Position numbers and translations under genes: made by a program. A DNA stretch of 64,000 bases from contig WGMA01000016.1 of the NCBI GenBank assembly GCA_016125285.1, positions 1 through 64,000 of the forward strand, read 5' to 3'. The notes under the pieces are model-generated. The model was given only the letters and a program-made list of their open reading frames with translations, had not been told where the DNA came from and did no database searches. The stretch comes from Phycisphaera sp. GTDB taxonomy: Bacteria > Planctomycetota > Phycisphaerae > Phycisphaerales > Zrk34. Positions 3,622 to 35,014 of the stretch are shown here, in pieces (the first letter of the stretch is position 1; every line of letters starts with the position of its first letter).

Positions 3622-5031
3622 ATGAAGGAATGGATCCCGCGCATCGTGGTGCTGGTGCTGTTCGTGGCCGTGGTCGGGCTGCCGGTGTTGTGGCGTCCGG
3701 CTGAGGCGAAGACGGACGCAGATGCGGCGCTGAAGCTCGTGGTGATCACGCCGCACAACGAGCAGATCCGGTTCGAGATCGGGCGGGCGTTCAGCAAGTG
3801 GCACGAGGCGAAGTACGGCGAGGCGGTCGACATCGACTGGCGTGCGATCGGCGGCACGAGCGACATCGAGCGCGTGCTGCTCAGCGAGTACGCGTCGCTG
3901 GCCGAGCAGGGCAAGCTCGAGGACGGCGCGGGGTACGACGTGGTGTTCGGCGGGGGCGACTACTCGTTCGACTTCAAGCTCAAGCCCGGCGTGCAGTGGA
4001 ATGGCAAGATGGAGAGCGTGCTCGAGCCGCTGGACCTCGACGACGCGTTCATCAAAGAGGTGTACCCCGAGCCGACGATCGCGGGCAACAAGCTGTACGA
4101 CCCGGAGCACTACTGGTGGGGTGTGGTGCTGTCGAGCTTCGGCATCGTGTACAACCGCGACGTGCTGAGGCTGCGCGGCGTGCCCGAGCCGAAGACGTGG
4201 GAAGACCTCGGCGACCCGAAGCTCGCGGGGTGGATCGCGCTGGCGGACCCCGAGCACTCGGGCTCGGTGAAGGTGACGTACAACGCGATCGTGCAGAACT
4301 ACGGCTACGAGCGCGGGTGGGCGACGCTGCGACGCGCGTGCGCCAACGCGCGGTACTTCTCCAACAGCAGCTCGAAGGTGCCGCTCGACGTCTCGGCGGG
4401 CGAGGCGGCGGCGGGCATGTGCATCGATTTCTACGGGCGATACCAGGCGAACGTCGTCGGCGCGGACCGCGTGGGCTTCGTCGCGCCGGCGGGGCAGACG
4501 GTGGTGACCGCGGACCCCGTCGCCGTGCTGCGCGGCTGCCAGCGCCCCCAGCTCGCCGAGCGGTTCGTGCGGTGGCTGCTGAGCACCGAGGGGCAGCTGC
4601 TGTGGAACGTGCCGGTCGGCCACGCGGCGGGGCCGGAGAAGTTCGGCCTGCGACGCATGCCCATCCGGCGCGACGTGTACAAGCCGTACCTCGGCGAGAT
4701 GATCGACCGGGTCGACCCCTTCGAGATCGCCAGCCCGCTGCCGGCCGGCACGCCGAGCTACTTCAGCGTGATCGGCCCGGTGATGCACGCGATGGCGATC
4801 GACATCCACGACGACCTGCGCGACGCGTGGCGGACGATCAACCAGACGACCGACGAAGCGCAACGCGCCGAGATGCTCAAGCTGTTCGACGCGATGCCGC
4901 TGACGAGCGACGAGCTGCTCGCCCGCAAGGCGGAGTGGAAGAAGAACCCGGACACGCAGATCGCCGACCGCCTGGCGTGGACGACGTTCTACCGGGACAA
5001 CTACCGGCGCATCGTTGAGATGGGACGCTGA
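3622..5031 (+). CDS. Extracellular solute-binding protein (ABC-type, family 1 / iron(III)-polyamine-like), membrane-anchored
   Basis: 469 aa with an N-terminal hydrophobic anchor (RIVVLVLFVAVVGLPVL). The overall pattern resembles periplasmic binding proteins (LKLVVITPHNEQI.., GSVKVTYNAIVQ). The family call comes from recollection, not a search. Confidence 0.55.
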   Translation: MKEWIPRIVVLVLFVAVVGLPVLWRPAEAKTDADAALKLVVITPHNEQIRFEIGRAFSKWHEAKYGEAVDIDWRAIGGTSDIERVLLSEYASLAEQGKLEDGAGYDVVFGGGDYSFDFKLKPGVQWNGKMESVLEPLDLDDAFIKEVYPEPTIAGNKLYDPEHYWWGVVLSSFGIVYNRDVLRLRGVPEPKTWEDLGDPKLAGWIALADPEHSGSVKVTYNAIVQNYGYERGWATLRRACANARYFSNSSSKVPLDVSAGEAAAGMCIDFYGRYQANVVGADRVGFVAPAGQTVVTADPVAVLRGCQRPQLAERFVRWLLSTEGQLLWNVPVGHAAGPEKFGLRRMPIRRDVYKPYLGEMIDRVDPFEIASPLPAGTPSYFSVIGPVMHAMAIDIHDDLRDAWRTINQTTDEAQRAEMLKLFDAMPLTSDELLARKAEWKKNPDTQIADRLAWTTFYRDNYRRIVEMGR

Positions 5032-5035
5032 CGGC

Positions 5036-5057
5036 GCGACCCGCCGAAGCGGGTCGC
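5036..5057. terminator. Stem-loop between convergent genes (candidate bidirectional terminator)
   Basis: GCGACCCGC-cgaa-GCGGGTCGC forms a perfect 9-bp stem. It lies between the stop at 5031 (+) and the stop at 5064 (-). There is no clear U-tract. Confidence 0.5.
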
Positions 5058-5063
5058 ACCGGG

Positions 5064-6137
5064 TTACGCCACGAGTTCTTCGGGGCGGTACTGCTCGAAC
5101 ATCTTCTTGTCCTGGGCCTTCATGTACGCGGCTTCGCCGGAGATGGTGCCGGCCTTGATGAGTTTCATCAGGCCCTGGTCCATCGTCTGCATGCCGTCAC
5201 GCGAGCCCATTTCGATCATCGACACGATCTTGGAGATGGCGCCGTCGCGGATCATCTGCGACATGCCTTCCTTGCGGACGAGGATCTCCTGGCAGGCGAC
5301 GCGGCCCTTGCCGTCGGCCTTGCGGAGCAGCTGCTGCGAGAAGATCGCGCGGACCGACTCGCTGAGCATCGTCCGGATCATGGGCTGCCGGCCGGAGGGG
5401 AACACGTCGATGATGCGGTCGATGGTCTTCGCGGCGGAGTTGGTGTGCAGCGTGCCGAACACGAGCAGGCCGAGCTCCGCGGCGGTCAGCGCGAGCGAGA
5501 TGGTCTCGAGGTCGCGCATCTCGCCGACGAGGATGACGTCGGGGTCTTCGCGGACGGCGGCGCGGAGGGCCTCGGCGAAGCCGTCGGTGTGCTGGCCGAC
5601 CTCGCGCTGCGTGATGACGGACTGCTGGTTCTCGTGCACGAATTCGATCGGGTCTTCGATGGTCACCACGTGCTTGGAGTATTCCTTGTTGACCTTGTCG
5701 ATGATGGCGGCGAGGGTCGTGGACTTGCCCGAGCCGGTCGGCCCGGTGACGAGGCAGAGGCCGGAGCGGTAGTGCGCGGCGTCGGCGATGGCGTCGGGCA
5801 GGCCGAGGTCCTGGCAGGTGAGGATCTTGTCGGGGATCTGACGGAAGACGGCGCCGTAGCCATGGACCTGCTTGAGGTAGTTGCAGCGGAAACGGGCGAC
5901 GCCCTCGAGGCCGTACGCGAAGTCGAGGTCGCCGGTCTTCTCGTACCGTTCCCAGAGGACCGGCTCGCAGATCTCGACGAGGTACGTGCGCAGCATGTCG
6001 CGCGTGAGGATGGGGTGTCCCTCGATGGGGTGCAGCTCGCCGTGCACGCGGACCTTGGCCGGCTGGCTCTGCAGCAGGTGCAGATCGCTGGCGCCGTTGG
6101 CTTTGACGTATCGGAACAGTTCGTCGATCTTGGCCAT
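5064..6137 (-). CDS. pilT: Type IV pilus retraction ATPase PilT
   Basis: 357 aa of canonical PilT size. It has Walker A GPTGSGKSTT, VTIEDPIEF, REDPDVILVGEMRD and GTLHTNSAAKTIDRIIDVFP. An RBS GAGAGG precedes the ATG. Confidence 0.9.
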   Translation of the reverse strand: MAKIDELFRYVKANGASDLHLLQSQPAKVRVHGELHPIEGHPILTRDMLRTYLVEICEPVLWERYEKTGDLDFAYGLEGVARFRCNYLKQVHGYGAVFRQIPDKILTCQDLGLPDAIADAAHYRSGLCLVTGPTGSGKSTTLAAIIDKVNKEYSKHVVTIEDPIEFVHENQQSVITQREVGQHTDGFAEALRAAVREDPDVILVGEMRDLETISLALTAAELGLLVFGTLHTNSAAKTIDRIIDVFPSGRQPMIRTMLSESVRAIFSQQLLRKADGKGRVACQEILVRKEGMSQMIRDGAISKIVSMIEMGSRDGMQTMDQGLMKLIKAGTISGEAAYMKAQDKKMFEQYRPEELVA

Positions 6138-6176
6138 AGTGTTTGCCTCTCGGGTCTAAGCGAGCGGTCGGGTGCC

Positions 6177-7829
6177 TTACTTGAATCGTCTGGGGTCCTC
6201 GGCGACCTTGATCGCCTCTTCCTTGTTGATCGTACCGCTCTGGACCAGCTCGTCGAGCGATTCGTCCATCAGCTTCTGGCCGACCTTGCGTCCGGTCTGC
6301 ATGACCGAAGGCAGCTGATAGGTCTTGGAGTCGCGGATCAGGTTGGCCACGGCGGTGGTGACGTAGAGGGTCTCGAGCGAGGCGACACGGCCGGAGCGGT
6401 CGTTCTTGCGCACGAGCTGCTGCGTGATGATGCCGCGGAGCGACCCGGCGAGCATCGTGCGGACCTGGGCCTGCTGGTCGGCGGGGAACACGTCGACGAT
6501 GCGGTCGATGGTGCGCGCCGCGGACTTGGTGTGCAGCGTGCCGATGACGAGGTGGCCCGTTTCGGCGGCGGTCATCGCGAGGCTGATGGTCTCCAGGTCG
6601 CGCATCTCGCCGATCATGATCACGTCGGGGTCCTCACGCAGCGCGGCCTTGAGCGCGGCGGAGAACGACTCGGTGTGCGGGTGCACCTGACGCTGCGTGA
6701 CGTTGCAGCTTTTCGACGGGTGCAGGTATTCGATGGGGTCCTCGACGGTGATGACGTGGTCCATGCGGTTTTCGTTGACGCAGTTGACCAGCGCCGCGGC
6801 GGTGGTGGACTTGCCACAGCCCGCGGGACCGGTCACGAGCACCAGCCCCTGCGACCACTCGGTCAGCGCCTCGAGGCTGTCGGGCATGCCGAGCTGCTGG
6901 AGGGTCGGGACCACGGACGGGATGATGCGGAGGATGATCGACGGGCCGCGGAACTGCATCAGCGCGTTGGCGCGGAATCGGCTGAGGTGGGGGTGTTCCC
7001 ACGACAGGTCGAGGTCGCGGTGCTCGGTGAAGATCTCGCGCTGCTCGTCGTCGAGGAAGCCCATGACCATGCGTTCGGCCATCTCGAAGGTGATGGGCGG
7101 TTCGTCGAAGAAGTGCAGCTCGCCGTGCAGCCGACAGAACGGTCGCGACCCGGCGGTGAGGTGCAGGTCGCTGGCGCCCATCCGGCAGGCCGTGTAGAGG
7201 AAACGCCACGCGTCGTCGTCGAGCCGGGGATCGTCGTCGGGCTTGGGCGGGACGTCGATCTTCGCGCCCGGCGCGGCGGGCTGCGCGCCCGGTCGGGGCG
7301 GCGCCGGCCGGTTCGGCGGCGGCGGTGGCGACGCGGCGGGGGGCGCGGCTTCCTCGAAGGAGAACTGCTTTTCCTCGACGGGCTCGGGCGGCGCCGGGGG
7401 GCGCGCCGCCTCGGCGGGATCGGTCGCGGGCACGACGTCGCCGAACAGCGCCGCGACGCGCTGGCCCACCTTCGCGACGACCGCGTCGTCGAGGAAGCCC
7501 TTGCGCTTGAGGATCCTGCGGATCGGCATGCGCCCGCCGGACTTCTCGAACTCCGAGAAGCACTCCTTCCACTGCTCGGGGGTGAGCAGCTTGTTGAGCG
7601 TCAGCAGGTTCTTCCACACGCGTGTCTCGACGATGACGCGCATGAGCGGGATCTTCTTCGGCGGGACCAGCCCGCTGGTCATCAGCATCGTCTGGAAGGG
7701 GATGCGGCCCTGCTGTTCCTTGAACTTGCCGACGACCTCGGCCCACTGCTCCTCGGTCATCAGGTTGTTCTGCATCACGACCTGATACCAGATCTGCAGG
7801 ACGATCTCGGTGCCTTGGGAGTCGCTCAC
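6177..7829 (-). CDS. PilT/PilU-family ATPase with a roughly 200-aa N-terminal extension (helical repeats plus Pro-rich linker)
   Basis: The C-terminal ~345 aa form a PilT core: GPAGCGKSTT, ITVEDPIEY, REDPDVIMIGEMRD, GTLHTKSAARTIDRIVDVFP and AVANLIRDSKTYQLPSVMQTG. The N-terminus has repeated ..EQW.E.. helices and PAPPEP/PPPPPNRPAPPRP. GTG start with a GGGAGGG RBS. Confidence 0.85.
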   Translation of the reverse strand: MSDSQGTEIVLQIWYQVVMQNNLMTEEQWAEVVGKFKEQQGRIPFQTMLMTSGLVPPKKIPLMRVIVETRVWKNLLTLNKLLTPEQWKECFSEFEKSGGRMPIRRILKRKGFLDDAVVAKVGQRVAALFGDVVPATDPAEAARPPAPPEPVEEKQFSFEEAAPPAASPPPPPNRPAPPRPGAQPAAPGAKIDVPPKPDDDPRLDDDAWRFLYTACRMGASDLHLTAGSRPFCRLHGELHFFDEPPITFEMAERMVMGFLDDEQREIFTEHRDLDLSWEHPHLSRFRANALMQFRGPSIILRIIPSVVPTLQQLGMPDSLEALTEWSQGLVLVTGPAGCGKSTTAAALVNCVNENRMDHVITVEDPIEYLHPSKSCNVTQRQVHPHTESFSAALKAALREDPDVIMIGEMRDLETISLAMTAAETGHLVIGTLHTKSAARTIDRIVDVFPADQQAQVRTMLAGSLRGIITQQLVRKNDRSGRVASLETLYVTTAVANLIRDSKTYQLPSVMQTGRKVGQKLMDESLDELVQSGTINKEEAIKVAEDPRRFK

Positions 7830-7954
7830 GACGGCGCCCTCCCGTCGCGACGACGCTCACGCCGAGCCGCGACCGGACCGGTCGGGGGTGTCCGCCGGCG
7901 ACCGTGACTCAAACGCATGGGTGTCGGGTCGTCCATCGTGGGTGCGCGTCCGTG

Positions 7955-10120
7955 TCAGAACAGCTTGTTGGGGTTCTCCGCGGCCTTCATCGCGTCGTCC
8001 TTCGTGATCACCCCGGACTGCGCCAGCTCCTTGAGCGAATCGTCCATCAGCTTCTGGCCCTGCTTGCGTCCGGTCTGCATGACCGACGGCAGCTGGAACG
8101 TCTTGGAGTCGCGCACGAGGTTGGACACGGCGGTGTTGACGTAGAGCACCTCGAGCGCCGCGACGCGGCCGGAGCCGTCGGCCCTGCGGACGAGCTGCTG
8201 GGTGATGATGCCGCGCAACGCCTCGGAGAGCATCGTGCGGACCTGCGCCTGCTGGTCGGACGGGAACACGTCGACGATGCGGTCGATCGTGCGCGAGGCG
8301 GACTTGGTGTGCAGCGTGCCGATGACGAGGTGGCCCGTTTCGGCGGCGGTCATCGCGAGCGAGATGGTCTCGAGGTCGCGCATCTCGCCGATCATGATCA
8401 CGTCGGGGTCTTCACGCAGCGCGGCCTTGAGCGCCGCGGCGAAGGTCTTGGTGTGGATCGGCACCTGCCGCTGCGTGACGTTGCAGTTCTTGGACGGGTG
8501 GATGTACTCCACCGGGTCCTCGACGGTGATGATGTGGTCTTTGCGGTTGGAGTTGACCAGGTCGACCAGCGCCGCGGCGGTGGTCGACTTGCCGCAGCCG
8601 GCGGGCCCGGTCACGAGCACCAGGCCCTGCGTCCACTCGGTCAGGCGGCCGAGGCTGGCGGGCATGCCGAGGTCGTCGAGCGTGGGGATGGTCTTGGGGA
8701 TGATGCGGAAGATGATCGACGGGCCGCGGAACTGCATCAGCGCGTTGACGCGGCATCGGCCGAGTTCGTCGCCGCCGTCGAACGAGAAGTCGAGGTCGCG
8801 GTGGCGCAGGAACTGCTGCTGCTGTTCGTCGTCCATGAAGCCGAGCACCATGCGGCGGGCGCGGTCGGGCGTCAGCTGCGGGGCGTCGAAGAAGTTCAGC
8901 TCGCCGTTGTGGCGCATGAAGGGGCGCGACCCGGCGGTGAGGTGAAGGTCGCTGGCGCCGGCCTCCACCGCGGCCTGGAGAAACTGCCGCGCCTCGGGGT
9001 CCAGGTCGTTCGGCGCTACCTCGCACTCGACACGCGGCTTATCGTCGGCCGCCTCCGGCACGCCCACCTTTGACGCCAGCGGCGCGATCGGCTTGGGCGC
9101 CACGAGCTTCGGCCCCTCGGGCTTCGGACGCGCGTCCGGCGAGATCGACGCCGAGCTGTCGAAGACGATGATCTTCTCGGTCGGCTCGCTGTCGTCGAGG
9201 TCGATGGCGTCGAGGTCTTCCTCCTCGCGTTCGATCGACAGCAGGTTCTCCTCCGCTTCACCGACCATCCGCGTGTTGGCGTCCTCGGTGGTCTGCGAGG
9301 TCCACTCCATCTCGCCGACGCGCTTGCGTCGCGCGGCGCCTTCGGCTTCCTCTTCGTCGGTCAGGTCGATGTCGTAGTCGTCGCCGTCCTCGTCCTGCAG
9401 CTCGACGACATCGGCGTCTTCCTCGAGGGCGTCCATGCTGATCGCGCTGCCGCCGGGCGCGGACGGCGCGGCGGTGGGCGGCGGCGGTGGGGGGGCCTTG
9501 GGCTTCGGCGGTGGCGGCGGTGCGGGATCGTCCTCAAGGGCGTCCATGCTGATGGCGCTGCCGCCGGGCTTGGGGGGCGCGGTCGGCGGGGGAGGCGGCG
9601 CGGCGGCCTTCCGGGGCGGAGGCGGCGCGCTGGCCTGCGGCGCGGGCGCGGCGTTGTCCGGCCACTTGCCGAGGATCAGGCGGAGCCGAGCCTTGATGTT
9701 GTTCGCCATGTCCTCCCGGACGTAGCCCTTGTCGATCAGGATCTTGTCGATCGGCACGCCGGCGTTCTGCTTCTGCAGCTGTTCACACTCGGCCCACTGA
9801 TCCTTGCTGATGACCTTGCTCTGCAGCAGCATCATCTTCAGGACCTCGACCTTCGCCGCGGAGCGCAGCTGGACGATGGTCTTTTCATCGGCCAGGCCGT
9901 TGTTGTGCAGGATCGTCTCGATCTGGATCTTCGCCCCGGCGTCGTTGTACGCCTTGTGGATCGCGTCCCAGACCGGTCGTTCGAGAATCTTGTATTTCAG
10001 CAGGACGTGCTGCCAGACCTGTGCGCGCGTCGCGGCAAGGGCGGCCTGTTCACGTTTCAAGCTTTCAGGAGAGGGACTCAAATCCGCTTCCTTTGAATCA
10101 CCACCGGCCCGAGCGTTCAC
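7955..10120 (-). CDS. PilT/PilU-family ATPase with a roughly 370-aa N-terminal extension (helical repeats, poly-Pro and acidic disordered region)
   Basis: The PilT core is very similar to that of 6177-7829: GPAGCGKSTT, REDPDVIMIGEMRD and AVSNLVRDSKTFQLPSVMQTG. The N-terminus carries T2SSE_N-like helices, PPPPP tracts, a duplicated GGSAISMDALE[DE]D motif and long D/E runs. The start (GTG 10120) is uncertain. Confidence 0.8.
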   Translation of the reverse strand: MNARAGGDSKEADLSPSPESLKREQAALAATRAQVWQHVLLKYKILERPVWDAIHKAYNDAGAKIQIETILHNNGLADEKTIVQLRSAAKVEVLKMMLLQSKVISKDQWAECEQLQKQNAGVPIDKILIDKGYVREDMANNIKARLRLILGKWPDNAAPAPQASAPPPPRKAAAPPPPPTAPPKPGGSAISMDALEDDPAPPPPPKPKAPPPPPPTAAPSAPGGSAISMDALEEDADVVELQDEDGDDYDIDLTDEEEAEGAARRKRVGEMEWTSQTTEDANTRMVGEAEENLLSIEREEEDLDAIDLDDSEPTEKIIVFDSSASISPDARPKPEGPKLVAPKPIAPLASKVGVPEAADDKPRVECEVAPNDLDPEARQFLQAAVEAGASDLHLTAGSRPFMRHNGELNFFDAPQLTPDRARRMVLGFMDDEQQQQFLRHRDLDFSFDGGDELGRCRVNALMQFRGPSIIFRIIPKTIPTLDDLGMPASLGRLTEWTQGLVLVTGPAGCGKSTTAAALVDLVNSNRKDHIITVEDPVEYIHPSKNCNVTQRQVPIHTKTFAAALKAALREDPDVIMIGEMRDLETISLAMTAAETGHLVIGTLHTKSASRTIDRIVDVFPSDQQAQVRTMLSEALRGIITQQLVRRADGSGRVAALEVLYVNTAVSNLVRDSKTFQLPSVMQTGRKQGQKLMDDSLKELAQSGVITKDDAMKAAENPNKLF

Positions 10121-10253
10121 CGCGGAAATGGCGCGTACGCAGTAACTTCCGCAGTATAGACACGCCCACGAATTGCGCCAAGGTGACCCGGCGGCCGCGA
10201 CGCCCCGTCGTAGACCGCCGGCCTCCCCGGTTTATGTCGAGCCTGCCGCAGCT

Positions 10254-11030
10254 TCAGAGCGGATCGCTCTCGTCGCCGCTGGAGGCCTCCTCGCCGCCGA
10301 GCTCTTCCTCGTGTGTCGAGCCGCCGTCCTCCTCGTCGTCGAGTTCCTCCTCGATGATCGAGTCCTTCTCGGTTTCGGTCGTGACGGCGGTGAACTCCAG
10401 CAGGCGGTTGATGCGGCGGCGGACCAGGAACAGCAGGGGCACGTGCGGGATGCGACGCAGCTCCTGCCGGCCGGTGGCGCTGTAGACGATCAGCGTGCCC
10501 GCGCCGCACATCAGGAACTCCAGCAGGTCGGGGTACGTCGTGCGGACGCGCTTGGCGCCGCGGGCGAGCGAGTCGTCGGCCCGGCCGAACGCGTAGTGTT
10601 CAAACTCGTTGTGCGAGATCCGCCAGCGGTGGTTGATCCGCACCCACACCATCATGATCGCGAACGGGATCGCCAGCAGGATGCTCAGCGCCATGCCGAA
10701 CCCCCTGTCGTAGTGGGCGTTCAGGCCGTCGAAGAAGTCATACATCGCCTTGAAGACCATGATGTCGTACGCGTCGCTCAGCCAGCGTCCGGCGAAGAAC
10801 AGCAGGCCCGCGATCACGACCCACACGAACGCGTAGTTGCGCTCGACGTCGACGCTGATGGTCATGATGACCGCCAGCATGATGAGCAGGTAGGTCCACC
10901 CGATGAGCGGGATCTGCGGCAGGAAGTACAGCAGCGGCCCGGCGACGATCAGCGGCCACGTGAACAACAGTTTCGGGTAGGTGTAGAACGTGACCGCTTC
11001 GCGGTCCTTGCGGGGTTTGTGTCCTGCCAT
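10254..11030 (-). CDS. Hypothetical integral membrane protein with an acidic C-terminal tail
   Basis: ORF trimmed to ATG 11030, which a GAGGAG RBS precedes. There are about four hydrophobic helices, a soluble domain, and a tail EEELDDEEDGGSTHEEELGGEEASSGDESD. I did not recognise a family. Confidence 0.6.
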   Translation of the reverse strand: MAGHKPRKDREAVTFYTYPKLLFTWPLIVAGPLLYFLPQIPLIGWTYLLIMLAVIMTISVDVERNYAFVWVVIAGLLFFAGRWLSDAYDIMVFKAMYDFFDGLNAHYDRGFGMALSILLAIPFAIMMVWVRINHRWRISHNEFEHYAFGRADDSLARGAKRVRTTYPDLLEFLMCGAGTLIVYSATGRQELRRIPHVPLLFLVRRRINRLLEFTAVTTETEKDSIIEEELDDEEDGGSTHEEELGGEEASSGDESDPL

Positions 11031-11220
11031 CGGATCGCTCCTCATGAGTGAGGGACTCGCCGGTTGCGCGGGGCGCTCGGCGGGGGGTTCACGTGGCCTG
11101 TGTTATCGATCGATCGTCGCCACAGGTCAAATCCACAACGTGTGTTTGTGATGATTTTAGGTTGGCGGGGGGTGGCGTCGACGGCAAAAGGCCTACGCGG
11201 ATTCACGAACGTGGCAAGGC

Positions 11221-14200
11221 TCAGCCCGACCCGTCCGGCGGACGCCGACGCTCCACCAGCTGACGCAGCTGCGGGATCAGCCGCCTGAGCAGGTCCAGCA
11301 GGTGTTCGATCGACTCGGGGTGCTCGACGACGGCGTGTTCGTCGGCCTCGATGCTGCGGCTCACCGCCTCGGCCTCCTTCGACCCGAAGATGCCCAGCGA
11401 CCCCGCCAGCCGATGCACGAGGCGGTGAACCGACTCGGTGTCGCCGTCTTGCACCGCCCGGCGCAGGTCGTCCGAAACCGCTTCGCTCTCCTTCGCAAAC
11501 AGCTCGACGATCTCGGTCAGCAGCCCGTGGTCGTCACCGGTGCGGTCGAGCACCTCGTTGAGGTCGTAGAGCACGGCGCCGTCACCGTCGCCGTCACGGT
11601 CGTCTCGCCCCGTGCCGCTGGTCGACCTGTCCCGGTCGCCCCGAGTGGTGTTCGTCGGATCGTCGGGTTCGCTCGTCACGCTGCGCGCCAGGGCGTCGCG
11701 CAGCGTGTCGCGCCGGATCGGCTTGGACAGGTAGTCGTCCATGCCCGCGTCGATGCACCGCTCGCGGTCTCCGGCCATGGCGTGTGCGGTCATCGCGATG
11801 ATCGGGACGTGCTCGCCGGTCTGACGCTCGGCGACGCGGATGCGACGCGTGGCCTCGAGGCCGTCCATCTCCGGCATCTGCACGTCCATCAGCACCACGT
11901 CGTAGCGCGTCGCGCCGCGCAGCGCCGCCAGCGCCTGTCGGCCGTTGCCCGCGACCGACACGCGATGGCCCTCGCGCTCCAGCAGGTGCGTCGCGACGAC
12001 CTGGTTGGTCACGCCGTCTTCCACGAGCAGGATGTTGAGCGAGCGCACCGCCGCGTCGCGCCCGGTCTCGTGTGACGTGGGGGCCTGGAGCTCCAGCGTT
12101 TCGGCGATCGCGTCAAACAGCTCGGACTGTTTGACGGGCTTGATGAGGTACCGACGGATGCCGACCTGCGCGAGGCTCGCGGTGTCGGCGAAGCGATGTG
12201 CGGAGGACAGCATGATCAGCCGCGTGCCGCGCAGGTTCGGCGTGTCCTTGATCCGGCGCGCCAGATCGAAGCCGTCCATGCCGGGCATCATCGCGTCGAG
12301 CAGCGCCAGCGGGTAGGGATCACCGGCCTCGGCGGCGCGGGTCAGCTCGGCCAGCGCCGCCGCACCATCGGCGACGACGGTTGGCGCCATGCCCCAGTTC
12401 TCCACCAACTGCTTGAGGATGCGGCGGTTGGTTACGCTGTCGTCGGCCAGCAGCAGCCGCACGCCGTCGAGCGACTCGTGCCGGTGGGCGGGTTGTTTGT
12501 CGGCGATCTCGAACGACGCGCTGAAGTGAAACGTGCTTCCCACGCCGACCGTGCTGACCACGCCGAGCTGCCCGCCCATCATCTCCACGAGCCGCCGCGA
12601 GATCGTCAACCCGAGTCCCGTGCCGCCGTAACGCCGCGTGGTCGACGAATCCGCCTGGGCGAACTCGTCGAAGATCCGCCCCAGGTGCTCGGGCGCGATG
12701 CCGATGCCCGTGTCGCGTACGGTGAACTTGAACGTCGCGTGATGGTCGTCGCGCGACTCGTTCGCCACGGTGACGACGATCTCGCCGCGCTCGGTGAACT
12801 TGATCGCGTTGCCGACGAGGTTGACCACGACCTGCGCCAGCCGCGGCGCGTCGCCGATCAGCACGTCGGGCACGTCCGGCGGGATGTCGTACGCCAGCTC
12901 CAGCTTCTTCTCCGACGCACGCGACCCGAGCATCTGCAGCGTGTTGCCCAGCAGGTCGCGCAGGCCGAACGGCTCGGCGTGCAGCTCGAACCGACCGGCC
13001 TCGATCTTCGACAGGTCCAGGATGTCGTTGATCAGGTCGAGCAGCGACATCGCCGAACGCTCGAGCATGTTCAGGTATTCCTTCTGAGCCTTGTCCAGGT
13101 CGCTGTCGCTCAGCAGCTGCGCCATGCCGATGATGCCGTTGATCGGCGTGCGGATCTCGTGGGACATGTTCGCCAGAAAATCGCTCTTGGCGCGGTTGGC
13201 CTGCTCCGCGGTGGTCTTGGCGATCTGGAGCTCCTGCGAGGCTCGCTCCATCGCCTCCTGCGCCTGCTTCATCGCGGTGATGTCGATCGAGTACATGATC
13301 ACGCCGCCGATCTCGCCGTCGGCGTCGCGCCACGGGCGCACCTCCCACATCAGCCACTGCACCGTGCCGTCGGGGCGCTCGAAGCGGTCCTCGTCGCAAG
13401 TCTCGGTCGCCCCCGCCAGGCAACGCTGGTGGATCTCCTTCCACCGGGCCGGCACCTCGGGGAACACGTCGTAGTGGCAACGCCCCTCCAGCGACCGCAG
13501 CGGCAGGCCGTAGTCCACCAGCCACTGCTCGGAGTGGCAGATGTAACACATGTCCCGGTCGAACATCGCCACGCCGACCGGCGCTTCCTTGACGAACTGC
13601 TCGAGCGTGTCGGCGGTCGCCCGAAGCTCCTGCTCGGCCTGGACGCGCTTGGTGATGTCCGTCGCGATCCCCGCCACCGCGTAGATCTTCCCCTCGTCGT
13701 CGCGCAGCGGGAACTTCAGCGACAGGTAATTCCGGAGCCCGTCGTCGTGCGGCATCGTCAGCTCGGACTGGATCGTCTGCCCGTTCGCCGCGACCTGCTG
13801 GTCCACCAGGAACGCCTCGGCCAGCTCCGCGCGGAACAGGTCCCGCGCCCGGCGGCCGTGCACCTGGACGTTGGTCAGCCCGAACACACGCTCGAACTGC
13901 CTGTTTACGAGCGTGAAGCCGTGGTCGAGGCTCTTGATGTAGACCACCGCCGGCATGAAGTCGATGATCGCCTTGAGCTGCTGCTCGCTGCGGGTGCGGT
14001 CGGCCAGCGCCTGCTTCTGCGCCGTGATGTCCATGATCACGCCGTCCAGCCAGCCGACCTCGCCCGTCAGGTCGTCGTGGATCGCCTGTCCCGACTCGCC
14101 GACCCAGCGGATCGAGCCGTCGGCGTGGACGATGCGGTACTCCATCGAGTAGGGCTCGTCGCGGTCGACGTGCTCGCGCACGATGCGGTCGACGCGGTCG

Positions 14201-15471
14201 GTGTCGTCGGGGTGGATGACGCTCTCGAAGGATCGCACGCGGTTCGACACGAAGTCGGACGCGGGGTAGCCGGTGATCTGCTCGATGCGGTCGCTGAGGT
14301 AACGCATCGTCCATTCTTCATCGAGGTCGCAGCGGTAGACCGCGCCGGGAATGTTGTCGACGAGCGTGCGGTACTGCCGCTCGGATCCGGTCAACGCCTC
14401 CTGCGCGACGCGGCGTTCGGCGGCTTCGCGTGTCGCCTCCGCGGCCTTCTGCTCGGCCTCGGTGCGCGCGGCGACGACCGCGGACTGCTGGCGGTGGAGG
14501 AACCCCGCGACGATCAGGCCGCCGATCGCCACGACCAGCCCCGCGACGATCACCTCGATCAGCGCCTCCCGCAGCGGCGCGTACGCCAGCGCCTCGGGCT
14601 GCTGGGCGACCACCGTCCACCGCTGCCGCGCGTAGGTCACGGGCATGAAGCTCGCCAGCACCGGCTCGTCGAGCCGCGGGTCGACGTAAGTGAGCGTGGC
14701 GCTCTTGCCGAGCGACGCCTGGATCTTCGGTTGCGTCGCGTACACGTCGTTCAGCAGCCGCGGGTCGCTCTCGTCGGGCGCGATCGCCGAGTGCCCGATC
14801 ACCAGGCCGCGCCGATCCAGCAGGATCACCTGCACGCCCTCGGCGATCGGCAGGTCAGACAGACGACGCGTGAACGTGTCGAGCCGGTACTGGTAGCACA
14901 GCACGCCGTGCACGCCCTCGTCGTCACGCACCGGCGTGGCGACGGTCACGACATAGGGCTGCGGCGCGGCGCGGCGCTGGTACGGCTCGGAGACGTACTG
15001 CGACCACTTCTCCGACACGCCGCGGAACCAGTCGCGATCGGAAAAGTCGACGTTGAGCGATTCGGGCGCCGCGGGGTAGTCGCACCACAGCACGCCCTTC
15101 TCGTCGGTCACGAACGCGCGGTCGACGTCGTCGTATGACTCGACGAGCGTCTGGAGCTTCGTGCGCAGCCCCGCGGCGTCGTGGCGGCTGACCATGTCAA
15201 TGAACTCGTCGGAGCCGGTGTAGATCGCCGCGTGCTGGCTGAGGTAGGACAGGTCGTTGGCGACGTACTGGCTCGTGAGCCGCGCCGCCGCCTCGCTCGC
15301 CGCCAGCGCCTGCGCGCGGATCGTGTGACTGACGATGACATACGCCGACCCGCACAACAGGAACACCGGCGCCATCAGCAGAACGACAAACACATAAAAC
15401 CACCGACGCGGACGGTTGTTGTCGCGTGTCTCGGCATCTCCACCACGTGCATTACCCTGCGTCTCTGACAA
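11221..15471 (-). CDS. Hybrid sensor histidine kinase (Cache-like sensor, multiple PAS, HisKA-HATPase, two receivers, HPt)
   Basis: 1416 aa. It has an N-terminal TM, a periplasmic region and a second TM, followed by several PAS/PAC modules. It also has the H-box [14 protein letters not shown], ATPase boxes DTGIGI / [13 protein letters not shown], receivers with [11 protein letters not shown] and [12 protein letters not shown], and a C-terminal HPt ([11 protein letters not shown]). Confidence 0.9.
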
Positions 15472-15675
15472 TCGCCATACCCCCAGGCGAGTACTCCCCC
15501 ATGGTCGACCGGATCACAGTTGTGTCCGACGGACCCCGATACGAATAGACCTGCTCCCATTCAGGATATAGACGCGCGTCGTCGCAGACAATCGTGGGGA
15601 ATGTCCTTTTGAATTTATTAAGGCGTCAATATGCACAGCAATCTCCTGCAATCGCGCAGCCGTGACCCGCGGCCC

Positions 15676-16710
15676 TCAGCCGTGAATCGCTTCGCCGCCG
15701 ACGTCAGCCAGCTCGTTGTATATCTCCGCGAACACGTCCTGGGCGTCGTTGAACGCCTCAACGATGTCGGGGTCAAAGTGCTTGCCCGACTCGGTATTGA
15801 TGATCTGGCACGCCCGGGCGTGATCGACCTCATCCTTGTACACACGCTTGGAGCGGATCACGTCGTACGCGTCGGCGAGGGCCACGATCCGAGCCGCCAG
15901 AGGAATGCCGGTCTTACGGTCGCGTCCGGCGCGTCCCTCCGGGTAGCCCGTGCCGTCGAACTTTTCATGATGCGACAACACCAGGTCCCGCGCCATCGAC
16001 AGGAACGACGCGGCGGGAAACCGTTTGATCGTCGTATCCAGCACCCGCGCCCCGCGCACGGTGTGCTTGGTCATGATCGCAAACTCCTCGGGTGTCAGCT
16101 GCCCGGGCTTGAACAGCACGCGGTCCGGCACCGTCACTTTGCCGATGTCGTAGAGCGGACAGACCTGCATCAGGATCAACCGGAACTCCGCCGTCACCTC
16201 GTTGATGTATCGCGGGTGCGTCGCCAACTCCTCGGCCAGCGTCATGCAGTACCGCCGCACGCGCTCGAGGTGGTTCGAGCCAGGCCAGTCACGCGCCCCG
16301 GCCAGCTTCGCCAGCGCGAACACCATCGCGTCCCACGACTCGGCCCGCGCGATCCGACGACCGGCGTTGAGCCGCAGCCGCAACTCGTCGTCGTTGAACG
16401 GCTTGATGATGTAATCGTCCGCCCCGGACTCCAGGCCAACCCGCACGTGGTCCGGATCGCGGTGACCCGTCAGCAGCACGATGTAGGTGTACGTGTGACT
16501 CTCCCGCGCGCGCACCGCCCGGCACAAGTCCACGCCGCTGACGCCCGGCATCTCCCAGTCCGCGAGGATCACGCGGAACGGGCGCGTGCGCAGAACCTCC
16601 AGCGCCTGGGCCCCGTGCTGCGCGACGGTGACCTTCCAGCCCCACTGCAGCAGCCTGGCCCGCAGCAGCGCGCGCGTCGTCGTGTCGTCATCAACGACCA
16701 GAATCTCCAC
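15676..16710 (-). CDS. Response regulator with HD-GYP domain (c-di-GMP phosphodiesterase, RpfG-like)
   Basis: The receiver is canonical (VVDDD, ILADWEMPGVSG, LLTGH, IIKP). It is followed by HD-GYP signatures (YDIGK, SHHEKFDGTGYPEG). Confidence 0.9.
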   Translation of the reverse strand: MEILVVDDDTTTRALLRARLLQWGWKVTVAQHGAQALEVLRTRPFRVILADWEMPGVSGVDLCRAVRARESHTYTYIVLLTGHRDPDHVRVGLESGADDYIIKPFNDDELRLRLNAGRRIARAESWDAMVFALAKLAGARDWPGSNHLERVRRYCMTLAEELATHPRYINEVTAEFRLILMQVCPLYDIGKVTVPDRVLFKPGQLTPEEFAIMTKHTVRGARVLDTTIKRFPAASFLSMARDLVLSHHEKFDGTGYPEGRAGRDRKTGIPLAARIVALADAYDVIRSKRVYKDEVDHARACQIINTESGKHFDPDIVEAFNDAQDVFAEIYNELADVGGEAIHG

Positions 16711-16798
16711 GATACCCCCTTCCGAACAACACGTAGCCCTTTGATGTCCGAGGCTTTACTATAACCGCATTGGGCGGCGTCCGGGAAGAAAGGCGCGC

Positions 16799-16826
16799 AA
16801 AAAAGCCCGGGTCGTCGGACCCGGGC
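16799..16826 (-). terminator. Rho-independent terminator of the 16857-18128 gene
   Basis: On the minus strand: GCCCGGGTC-cgac-GACCCGGGC followed by TTTTTT. The stem is a perfect 9 bp. Confidence 0.75.
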
Positions 16827-16856
16827 CTCGTTCGATATCCACCGTGTCGGGTCGTC

Positions 16857-18128
16857 CTACTGCTTGACGTCGAAGCAGAAGAACAGGTCCTGGTCACGCA
16901 GGTACAGCTTGCCGTCGCTGATCACCGGGTGGACCCAGATCTTGCCGCTCTTGCGGGGCTTGTTGGTCTTCGCGGGCAGATTGAGGCGGCCGTGCTCCTT
17001 CCAGCCGTCCTTGCTCGCCTCGATCAGCACGCACGTGCCGTCGCTCTCGCTGTACAGGTACAGCATGCCGTCGGCGTAGGTGCACGAGCCCTTGCCCAGG
17101 TCGCGCGAGCTCCAGATCATGTCGCCCGACATGAAATCCTGGCAGACCCACGCCGAGTCGTTGTGACCGTAGAGCTGCTCGCCCACGCGGACCACGCCGC
17201 CGTGGTGGTTCTTCATCGTCTTGTTGTCGTAGACGATCTCCGCGGACTTCGAGTCGTCGGCGATCTTGATCAGCATGCAGCCCTGGCCGTAACCCGACGT
17301 GATGTACACGTGACCGTTGTGGTAGATCGGCGTAGGGATCACCGCCGTCTTGCCGTGCCACGGCACCGACCAAAGCAGCTTGCCGTCCTTCGCGTCGATG
17401 CCGTTGACGCTTTCGACACGCAGCTTGACGTACTGACGCTTGCCGTTGTGATCGATGGCGATCAGCGACGAGTAGTGGCCCGCGTCCTTGAAGTTGTCCG
17501 ACTTCCAGATGATCTCGCCGGTCTTCTTGTTGAACGCGTAGCAGGGCCCGTTGCCGCCGGCGGTGGCGACCACCTGGTCGCCGTCCACGAGCGGCGACTG
17601 CGTGTAGCCCCAGCCCTCGGTCTTGCCGCCGAGCTTGTTGAGGTCCTGCGTCCACAGGCTCTTGCCGCTCGTCGCGTCGATGCACGCCAGCTCGCCCTTC
17701 GAGCCCATGCAGTACGCCTTGCCGTCGTCGATCGTCGGCGTCGAACGCGGGCCGTCGCCCCAGTTGTTGTCGTAGTGCGAGCCGACCGGCGTCGACCAGA
17801 TCATCTTGCCGTTCGACGCGTCGAGGCAGTGCAGTTCCTCGCCGTTGCCGCGGTCGGACATGATGTAGATGCGCCCTCCGACGACCGACGGTCCCGCGTG
17901 CCCGATCCCCAGCGTGTCGATCTGCCACACGAGCTTCGGGCCGCCCTCGGGCCACTGCTTGAGCAGTCCGGTCTCCGACGAGCGGTCGGTGCGATCCGGC
18001 CCGCGCCACTGCGGCCAGTCCGCCGCCATCGCCGCCGACGCCAGCGCGAGCGCCGCGCCGGTGATGATCATGCTCGCCGTTCGCGTCGCCCACGGCGTCG
18101 CTACGTTCTTACCTCGCGCGTTGGTCAT
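16857..18128 (-). CDS. Secreted PQQ-like beta-propeller repeat protein (BamB-family fold)
   Basis: 423 aa with a signal peptide (..ALALASAAMAADWPQWRG). Repeated motifs include G.IY.., DG.LY and W-rich blades. A GAGGGA RBS is present. Confidence 0.8.
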   Translation of the reverse strand: MTNARGKNVATPWATRTASMIITGAALALASAAMAADWPQWRGPDRTDRSSETGLLKQWPEGGPKLVWQIDTLGIGHAGPSVVGGRIYIMSDRGNGEELHCLDASNGKMIWSTPVGSHYDNNWGDGPRSTPTIDDGKAYCMGSKGELACIDATSGKSLWTQDLNKLGGKTEGWGYTQSPLVDGDQVVATAGGNGPCYAFNKKTGEIIWKSDNFKDAGHYSSLIAIDHNGKRQYVKLRVESVNGIDAKDGKLLWSVPWHGKTAVIPTPIYHNGHVYITSGYGQGCMLIKIADDSKSAEIVYDNKTMKNHHGGVVRVGEQLYGHNDSAWVCQDFMSGDMIWSSRDLGKGSCTYADGMLYLYSESDGTCVLIEASKDGWKEHGRLNLPAKTNKPRKSGKIWVHPVISDGKLYLRDQDLFFCFDVKQ

Positions 18129-34141: not shown

Positions 34142-35014
34142 ATGACCCGCAACCGCACGACATCACAATCACGCCAACCCCGCCGCGGCTTCACGCTCAT
34201 CGAGATGCTCGTGACCCTCGCGATCATCGCCGTGCTGCTGGGCATCCTGCTCCCGGCGATGAGCAAGGCGCGCAAGCGCGTGATGGCGGTCGTCGGCGAC
34301 TGGAACATCCCCACCGACAACCTCGTGGCGTTCTATCCGCTGCTCGGCGCAGACGTGCCCGGGCGGCTGCCCAACAACCTCGGCAGCCCGAAGGTCGTGT
34401 TCGACCAGGACGCGCAGCTCGATGTCATCGAGTTTGATGGTTCGTTCACGCTCGGCGTGCTGCCGCCGGTGTTCGACAACCGCCAGGAGCTGACGGTGAT
34501 GTTCTGGGCGAAGGGCGACGACGCGCTGCCGCAGGCGACCGCGGCGTTCTGGCTCGAAGGGCCCGGCGCGGGCGGACGCGTCGCGCTGGTGCACCTGCCG
34601 TGGTCGAACGGCAACGTCTACTTCGACGCGGGCGACGGCTCGTGCTGCCCCGACCGCATCTACACCGCCGTGCCGCCCGAACTCTACAAGGGCGAGTGGA
34701 CCTTCTGGGCGTTCACGAAGAACGCGAAGACCGGCGAGATGAAGATGTATGCCAACGGCGAACTGATCGCCAGCGGCTCCGGGCACAAACGCGCGATGGC
34801 CGACACCGCGAGCCTGTGGATCGGCTCGGCGCCCGGCGGCGCCAATCGGTACCGCGGCCGGATGATGATGCTGGGCTTCTACGATCGCGTGCTCGACCCC
34901 GAGCAGATCAAGGAGTACGCCGCCGCCCAGCCGGGGCTCGTGCAGGCGTACCAGGGCAAGCTGTCCAGCCGCATCAACGCCGTGGGCAAGGGCCTGCGGA
35001 CGGTTAAGGAGTGA
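34142..35014 (+). CDS. Prepilin-type N-terminal domain fused to a LamG/ConA-like lectin domain
   Basis: RRGFTLIEMLVTLAIIAVLLGILLP is followed by LTVMFWAKGDD, WTFWAFTKN and YRGRMMMLGFYDRVLDPEQI, which is the LamG pattern. Confidence 0.75.
   Translation: MTRNRTTSQSRQPRRGFTLIEMLVTLAIIAVLLGILLPAMSKARKRVMAVVGDWNIPTDNLVAFYPLLGADVPGRLPNNLGSPKVVFDQDAQLDVIEFDGSFTLGVLPPVFDNRQELTVMFWAKGDDALPQATAAFWLEGPGAGGRVALVHLPWSNGNVYFDAGDGSCCPDRIYTAVPPELYKGEWTFWAFTKNAKTGEMKMYANGELIASGSGHKRAMADTASLWIGSAPGGANRYRGRMMMLGFYDRVLDPEQIKEYAAAQPGLVQAYQGKLSSRINAVGKGLRTVKE

Follow-up and report, generated by a model that had tools for sequence, protein, structure and literature searches.

Paired long PilT paralogues with MshEN_N-like N-terminal units and their short partner in a Phycisphaera contig

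A 64,000-nucleotide stretch of DNA from Phycisphaera sp. (GenBank assembly GCA_016125285.1, contig WGMA01000016.1, positions 1 to 64,000; hereafter the window) carries three adjacent open reading frames (ORFs) of 721, 550 and 357 aa for PilT-family ATPases, referred to here as A721, B550 and C357. Their minus-strand coordinates are exactly those given in a first-pass annotation, which a model had made from the letters. The three genes are co-directional, with intergenic gaps of 125 and 39 bp, and since no minus-strand terminator-like site lies between them a three-gene operon is possible. Each of the two long proteins consists of two tandem helical units of ~55 aa, a Pro/Ala-rich linker and a PilT core. 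The extensions, of 372 and 205 aa, take A721 and B550 beyond the compact PilT size of ~340-400 aa, to which C357 conforms. The units resemble MshEN_N, the 53-residue four-helix bundle that binds cyclic di-GMP (c-di-GMP) in assembly ATPases of the MshE/PilB/PilF type (PDB 5HTL, 8PDK). The features of the three genes are as follows.

7955..10120, minus strand: A721, long PilT paralogue, ORF of 721 aa (TIGR01420 435 bits; best PDB match 3jvu)
9863..10018, minus strand: A721 MshEN_N-like unit 1 (aa 35-86), with motif starts VWQ / QIE versus RLG / RLG
9692..9844, minus strand: A721 MshEN_N-like unit 2 (aa 93-143), found by hidden Markov model (HMM), with motif starts VLK / PID
9005..9682, minus strand: A721 disordered linker (aa 147-372), from composition, with poly-Pro tracts, a repeat and an acidic tract
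9527-9565 and 9416-9454, minus strand: two exact copies of the A721 linker repeat GGSAISMDALE[DE]D (aa 186-198, 223-235)
9302-9316, minus strand: GEMEW motif of the A721 linker
8990-9037, minus strand: A721 pre-core motif PRVECEVAPNDLDPEA
7958..9004, minus strand: A721 PilT core (aa 373-721), with Walker A, Asp box, Walker B, His box and AVSNLVRD
6177..7829, minus strand: B550, second long PilT paralogue, 550 aa (ORF; TIGR01420; orthologue P0001)
7638..7793, minus strand: B550 MshEN_N-like unit 1 (aa 13-64), with motif starts IWY / PFQ
7464..7619, minus strand: B550 MshEN_N-like unit 2 (aa 71-122), with motif starts VWK / PIR
7215..7454, minus strand: B550 Pro/Ala-rich linker (aa 126-205), 30% Pro, net charge -7, without either A721 linker motif
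6180..7214, minus strand: B550 PilT core (aa 206-550), from TIGR01420, PDB comparison and pattern search
5064..6137, minus strand: C357, canonical-length short PilT partner, 357 aa (ORF; TIGR01420; tree)

The PilT cores and their N-terminal extensions

The identity of the cores was defined by model scores, matches to solved relatives and phylogeny. All three proteins exceed the whole-protein cut-off (319 bits) of TIGR01420, the curated NCBI model for PilT/PilU, with 435.4 (A721), 429.1 (B550) and 433.5 bits (C357), whereas PilB/GspE-type models give them just 133-153 bits, against cut-offs of 675 (TIGR02538), 630 (TIGR02533) and 617 bits (NF007755) for the assembly and secretion ATPases. For every core the closest solved structure is P. 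aeruginosa PilT, at 330-345 bits versus 224-263 bits for PilU, and A721 matches PilT entry 3jvu best (E 5e-98). A core phylogeny with PilB as the outgroup places all three inside the PilT clade. This agreement bears out the first-pass view of the cores as PilT-type; a PilB/GspE identity is ruled out by the contrast between TIGR01420 and assembly-ATPase scores together with the placement in the tree.

Walker A, Asp box and Walker B were matched by pattern search in all three proteins, Walker A of A721 reading GPAGCGKST and its Walker B DVIMIGEMRD. The His box GHLVIGTLHT was matched in A721 and B550; C357 falls outside the pattern, its variant GLLVFGTLHT having been read from the sequence. The AIRNLIRE-type motif takes the form AVSNLVRD in A721 and AVANLIRD in B550 (5-6 of 8 positions) and is degenerate in C357 (GMSQMIRD). 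The motifs that had been cited at the outset, namely GPAGCGKST, AVSNLVRD/AVANLIRD with the following QLPSVMQTG, and four N-terminal helices, are all present. By scores and motifs, A721, B550 and C357 are PilT-type ATPases with intact catalytic motifs. The A721 and B550 cores are 75% identical, and C357 shares ~46% with either.

The NCBI annotation of the same contig calls the cores alone, as P0002 (334 aa) and P0007 (349 aa), and a relative from a Deltaproteobacteria metagenome-assembled genome (MAG) is likewise reduced to its core (P0334, 349 aa). Given these calls, and the long spurious upstream ORFs that high-GC genomes yield, the extensions could be taken for ORF over-extension artefacts in a 67% GC genome whose real genes are the 334- and 349-aa cores, but the probability of this is negligible and the idea is rejected on codon composition, conservation and predicted fold. 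Frame-specific GC content at third codon positions (GC3) is 0.90-0.97 through both extensions, equal to that of the cores; amino-acid conservation extends through them in dozens of relatives, full-length gene calls included; the structural models described below are of confidently folded domains; and the P0002 call begins within the conserved PilT N-terminal region (MGASDLHL). Codons 1-32 of A721 (10021-10120) are the exception, with a GC3 of 0.53 before the value rises to about 0.9, and the true start is therefore probably a TTG at codon 14 (10079-10081) or codon 21 (10058-10060), giving a protein of ~701-708 aa.

Orthologues support the full-length reading. P0001 is a full-length B550 orthologue, with 72% identity over 99% of the length, and a second metagenome contig, L087, preserves all three genes and their order. 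Identity between L087 and the window is 69% for the A gene over 685 aa, including the linker, 72% for the B gene, and 79% for the C357 orthologue over the 47 residues present. From GC3, the full-length relatives and the orthologous triplet, it follows that the A721 and B550 extensions are translated and under selection.

The N-terminal unit and the long-PilT family

Among 123 close PilT homologues the unit was found by HMM in 78, of which 73 have one copy and five have two; both A721 and B550 belong to the five. The unit comprises two 24-residue half-motifs, separated in the window by a spacer whose length, 7 residues, is that of Geobacter PilB. A profile drawn exclusively from planctomycete-type units matches the N-terminus of Geobacter PilB (E 3e-7) and the GSPII-A domain of Thermus PilF (E 1e-6), and both matches are in register with the published half-motifs. 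AlphaFold2 (AF2) models of the two N-terminal regions each contain two four-helix bundles joined by one continuous helix, with predicted local distance difference test (pLDDT) values of 93.4 and 92.8 and predicted template modelling (pTM) values of 0.82 and 0.83. The profile matches and the models thus support homology of the A721 and B550 units to MshEN_N, with a predicted four-helix-bundle fold.

The proposal that these regions are MshEN/T2SSE_N domains therefore stands for the 53-residue MshEN_N bundle and not for the whole domain. Pfam PF05157 (MshEN) gives no match at E<=10 on either N-terminus, and for the homologues that were listed the precomputed Pfam domains do not include it either. 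No MshEN_C/ND1 alpha/beta subdomain is found: the models contain helices only, and the bundles lead straight into low-complexity Pro/Ala/acidic sequence. Searches of Pfam with the isolated N-termini and the acidic linker yielded nothing relevant at E<=10, and a word-indexed homology search with the B550 N-terminus as sole query returned no matches, whereas the full-length query succeeded. The architecture is consequently hidden from these annotations, in that NCBI reduces the genes to the core on this contig and in at least one other case, and Pfam misses the domain. Nevertheless, the N-termini do resemble MshEN_N and the cores do not join PilB/GspE, and on both counts the first-pass proposal survives.

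In the core phylogeny all long PilTs are monophyletic (99/100 bootstraps), and the MshEN_N-PilT fusion therefore appears to have arisen once, in an ancestor common to Myxococcota-type and planctomycete bacteria. The long clade splits into a planctomycete class (100/100), in which B550 groups with P0001 and A721 is sister to both, and a canonical-motif class (95/100). The short partners of long PilTs form a clade of their own that includes C357 (82/100). In every locus examined (L001-L005, L087 and the window) a long gene is followed directly by a short PilT of ~355 aa. The combination of long and short PilT is thus, as judged from these sequences, a conserved family not peculiar to this genome, and the window would represent a long/short module with the long gene duplicated. 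The taxonomic range of the clade rests on a few named records, those of the window's class being Phycisphaera, Phycisphaeraceae and Planctomycetota, and those of the canonical class Myxococcota or 'Deltaproteobacteria' MAGs. When a genome collection was scanned with full-length B550, generic PilT cores of many phyla were returned, the Walker-B pattern dominating, and the unit matches in those loci proved to be ordinary PilB genes next to them.

The two classes differ in their ligand motifs. In MshE, a Leu triad and the backbone amides of the glycine at position 3 together hold each guanine; substitutions G11L, G11I and G40I in VcMshE abolish c-di-GMP binding, and XpsE lost binding via comparable changes (PMC5013675). 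The consensus has been extended to (R/K/L)LG... (PMC11731258). Position-3 Gly, corresponding to G11 and G40 of VcMshE, is kept in none of the eight half-motifs of the window, where it is replaced by Q/E and K/D in the A721 units and by Y/Q and K/R in those of B550. In addition, conserved Trp residues replace Leu at positions 2 and 17 of motif I, the equivalents of L10 and L25 in MshE. With the position-3 glycines gone throughout, canonical binding would therefore be lost, and canonical c-di-GMP binding by the A721 and B550 units is unlikely.

Scores against NF053729, the NCBIfam model of the 53-residue c-di-GMP motif (cut-off 38 bits), follow the same division. Unit 2 of A721 reaches 24.0 bits, below the cut-off, and the other three window units are unmatched; single-unit planctomycete relatives score 19-24 bits, and the units of canonical-motif, Myxococcota-type long PilTs 43-55 bits. 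Both glycines (LLG...RLG) are retained in 106 of 107 canonical-class units. The window units would thus be the most degenerate of a family that includes probable c-di-GMP binders. The link to c-di-GMP implied by the first-pass annotation is, given the missing glycines and the low NF053729 scores, probably wrong for A721 and B550, and plausibly right for the sister clade.

The linkers are also class-specific. The A721 linker is 226 aa long and strongly acidic, and that of B550 is 80 aa; among 189 family members the median is 86 aa (range 30-231), with A721 the longest. Poly-proline tracts are present, as had been noted, and so is the acidic stretch, although at about 147 aa (aa 226-372; 45 D+E, net charge -31) rather than the >150 aa first given. 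The motif [DEN]x[DE]W is carried by 14 of 35 planctomycete-class linkers versus 1 of 154 from the other class (shuffled mean 0.5), and the pre-core motif R[IVM]x[SCA][PE]VxP...DP in 19 of 35 versus 0 of 154; its fuller form in planctomycete long PilTs is R[IVM]x[SCA][PE]VxPxxhDPxA. Both are far above shuffle expectation. Both are found in A721, with GEMEW as the instance of [DEN]x[DE]W, and neither in B550; they are conserved in the L087 orthologue of A721 and occur in further relatives (P0003, P0006, P0012, P0013, P0036 and others). This enrichment suggests that the linker is more than a spacer, and the class-specific motifs point to partner binding. Separately, each copy of the A721 repeat GGSAISMDALE[DE]D is flanked by poly-proline tracts, and the L087 orthologue has comparable TISMDDIEDD and GGSAIAMDFEDDD elements.

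The sister clade provides one close comparison. Myxococcota-type long PilTs (P0082, P0338) share with the window the order of unit, disordered linker and PilT core, and have a short PilT directly downstream. They differ in having a single unit with the canonical LLG...RLG and a score above the NF053729 cut-off, where the window's units are degenerate, and in having non-acidic linkers without the planctomycete linker motifs. By their motifs they are likely to be true c-di-GMP binders. A 2026 study of M. xanthus, the one paper found to mention MXAN_6705, describes that protein as adjoining MXAN_6706, conserved in Myxococcales and possessing a longer N-terminus 'predicted to be intrinsically disordered' (PMC13584747). 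From this published description (longer N-terminus, adjacent paralogue, Myxococcales conservation), MXAN_6705/MXAN_6706 is probably a Myxococcota-type pair; the 2016 list of 22 MshEN proteins in M. xanthus does not include MXAN_6705.

Surroundings of the locus and related architectures

Upstream of A721, and further along the window, lie the following features.

10153..10181, minus strand: sigma-70-like promoter match TTGGCG-17-TATACT upstream of A721 (a consensus match only; 2 found versus 0.3 expected)
10254-11045, minus strand: predicted membrane protein of 263 aa, with an acidic C-terminal tail and no Pfam family
11221-15471, minus strand: hybrid sensor kinase (dCache, several PAS, HisKA, HATPase, two REC, Hpt)
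15676-16710, minus strand: HD-GYP response regulator (REC + HD_5)
34142-35014, plus strand: protein with a prepilin-type N-terminal methylation motif and a LamG/Concanavalin-like domain

The HD-GYP response regulator gene runs in the direction of the PilT genes, ~5.6 kb from the A721 start. Together, the hybrid kinase and the REC-HD-GYP protein look like a c-di-GMP-degrading two-component output. The first-pass annotation had drawn attention to this gene, and its presence is confirmed; the link is not, since none of the four distinct relatives' loci examined has an HD-GYP/histidine-kinase neighbourhood. The two genes are thus not evidence of a functional link, and a tie between PilT and HD-GYP was rejected as the neighbourhood is not conserved. 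A search of Rfam over 4900-17000 found no riboswitch or other RNA family, and no c-di-GMP cyclase is present among the window genes scanned. The 263-aa membrane protein is co-directional with A721 and 133 bp upstream of it, and is not found upstream of long PilTs in the relatives examined. The content of the remaining window is typical of planctomycetes.

Other elaborations of PilT, and of the unit, were encountered. Homologues of ~730 aa (P0004, P0008, P0011, P0014 and others; 715-761 aa), which occur for example in Arenimonas composti, Lentisphaeria and Kiritimatiellota, have no MshEN_N unit, and their long P-loop Pfam lists suggest tandem double-PilT fusions. P0104 (502 aa), from a Planctomycetes MAG, has FHA domains (PF00498/PF16697) on a PilT homologue instead of the MshEN_N unit, and would represent a further sensory or docking domain grafted onto a PilT core. 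Finally, a representative library contains proteins of 700-2400 aa with 3-5 or more MshEN_N-like units (P0123, P0126, P0129, P0141 and others), in which the Gly positions are mostly canonical; these arrays may be multivalent c-di-GMP binders.

Docking module, sensor or remnant

We lean, by somewhat more than an even chance, towards a retraction-motor module in which a duplicated long PilT carries formerly c-di-GMP-binding bundles as putative docking or regulatory modules. The locus would be a two-component module, long PilT followed by short PilT, with the long gene duplicated to give A721 and B550 ahead of C357. Each long protein would be a catalytically competent subunit of a PilT hexamer, its N-terminus consisting of two tandem MshEN_N-type four-helix bundles on a long disordered Pro/Ala-rich linker, acidic in A721, and as many as twelve bundles would be flexibly tethered to one hexamer. 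The Myxococcota-type branch would have kept the canonical c-di-GMP motif, while the planctomycete branch would have swapped the key contacts (Leu to Trp; RLG to hW(G/x) and xPI). Bundles that no longer bind c-di-GMP canonically would then act as tethered docking or regulatory modules that recruit or gate the motor. The loss of the canonical ligand contacts, set beside a fold, Trp residues and linker motifs that have all been retained, would be most economically explained by a module that docks or regulates independently of ligand and descends from a c-di-GMP sensor. That a short partner is always present suggests that long and short PilT may cooperate as two motors, much as in PilT/PilU. Both the docking role and this cooperation we infer by analogy.

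A precedent for docking comes from X. citri PilB, whose ND0 (MshEN_N-like) subdomain is without c-di-GMP motifs and belongs to an N-terminal domain that forms a complex with PilZ and, via PilZ, with FimX (PMC8389850). Degenerate N-domains are represented by ND0-ND1 of Xanthomonas PilB (PDB 7LKM), which binds PilZ-FimX, and by XpsE (PDB 2D28), with no c-di-GMP binding; unlike those of the window, they belong to assembly or secretion ATPases and retain ND1. Compared with the MshEN_N bundles of MshE, PilB and PilF, those of the window sit on a PilT-type core, lack MshEN_C (ND1), are followed by a disordered linker of 80-230 aa, have lost all position-3 glycines with Trp for Leu at two platform positions, and fall below Pfam and NCBIfam thresholds. 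The PilT/PilU tandems of Pseudomonas, Vibrio and Neisseria are likewise adjacent genes in which one partner has the better-kept AIRNLIRE-type motif, but the window's cores are all closer to PilT, PilU has no N-terminal MshEN_N, and in the window the first gene is extended and duplicated.

Several points weigh against the docking interpretation. The loss of c-di-GMP binding is drawn from motif rules established for MshE and PilF, and in GSPII-B of PilF the consensus tolerates unexpected substitutions at position 1 (PMC11731258). The conserved Trp residues occupy guanine-stacking platform positions, so a modified ligand site is conceivable. The AF2 models may reflect a memorised MshEN fold, the input alignment having held canonical-motif sequences. 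Moreover, there are no pilus assembly genes within the 64 kb: pilB/C/M-Q are missing, and the sole pilin-like gene is that of the prepilin-type N_methyl protein.

Some of these points would favour bundles that are still sensors, accepting c-di-GMP or another nucleotide in a remodelled, Trp-lined site and making the motors ligand-gated, possibly wired to the HD-GYP protein. The MshEN_N fold and register are conserved, the sister-clade long PilTs pass the NF053729 cut-off with both glycines in nearly every unit, the two Trp positions form the base-stacking platform in MshE, and K, L and P are known to be accepted at position 1; in addition, the genes upstream in the same direction include those of an HD-GYP response regulator and a large sensor kinase. 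We nevertheless regard a persisting sensor as unlikely. Bulky or charged residues stand in place of the position-3 glycine in all eight half-motifs, and it is at this position that G11L, G11I and G40I abolish binding; NF053729 gives 24 bits or less, or no match; the HD-GYP/kinase pair is missing from the relatives' loci; and neither a c-di-GMP riboswitch nor a cyclase accompanies the locus among the window sequences scanned.

A different objection concerns output. The long PilTs might not be type IVa retraction motors at all, serving instead as PilU-like accessories that depend on the short PilT or as motors of another fibre or secretion system. The dearth of pilus genes around the locus fits this idea, as does the finding that no pilus assembly genes lie near the long/short pairs in the relatives' loci examined; the long clade is distinct from generic PilTs, and two-motor PilT/PilU systems are established. 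The higher scores of the cores against PilT than against PilU, and the AIRNLIRE-type motif that is better kept in the long cores than in the short partner, argue the other way and make such an output quite improbable. Since the question raised is one of output, and the identity of the N-terminal domain is not at issue, this objection can hold together with the docking interpretation.

It is less probable again that the N-termini are decaying, functionless remnants of a sensor on what are ordinary redundant PilT paralogues. Loss of the ligand-contact residues and the wide variation in linker length speak for such decay, and in M. xanthus the MXAN_6705 N-terminus is predicted to be disordered and stronger motility defects are reported for other paralogues (PMC13584747). 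On the other hand, the window and L087 share ~70% identity over the units and linker motifs, GC3 matches that of the cores, and the AF2 models are very confident. Furthermore, the unit has been duplicated with both copies retained in a subclade, conservation is strong at the Trp and other non-contact positions, and the linker motifs occur far more often than in shuffled controls.

The window's long PilTs belong to a clade that appears essentially undescribed, comprising MshEN_N, linker and PilT together with a short PilT, monophyletic and present in two phyla. The catalogue of Wang et al. (2016) places MshEN on PilB/GspE/MshE-type ATPases and MshEN_N in fusion with several other domains, not with PilT, and our literature search found no description of an MshEN-type or sensor-type domain on a PilT retraction ATPase. 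In the literature found, c-di-GMP acts on type IV pili via the extension ATPases (MshE, PilB, PilF) or via adaptors.

A bolder and doubtful reading, to which we attach some weight but well short of an even chance, treats the clade as a whole as a hitherto unrecognised class of retraction motors with a sensory or targeting domain of their own. That domain would be a c-di-GMP receptor in the Myxococcota-type branch and a Trp-rebuilt pocket with a linker switch in the planctomycete branch. The rebuilt pocket might accept some other ligand or fix the bundle in a state that mimics the liganded one, and the conserved acidic-Trp and pre-core linker motifs would form a tethered intramolecular switch on the ATPase ring. 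If true, pilus retraction in the Myxococcota-type branch would itself come under second-messenger control. The clade shows a gradient from canonical to degenerate ligand motifs, and each end makes a question testable: the canonical branch, direct gating of retraction motors by c-di-GMP; the window's branch, the fate of a sensor bundle after ligand loss.

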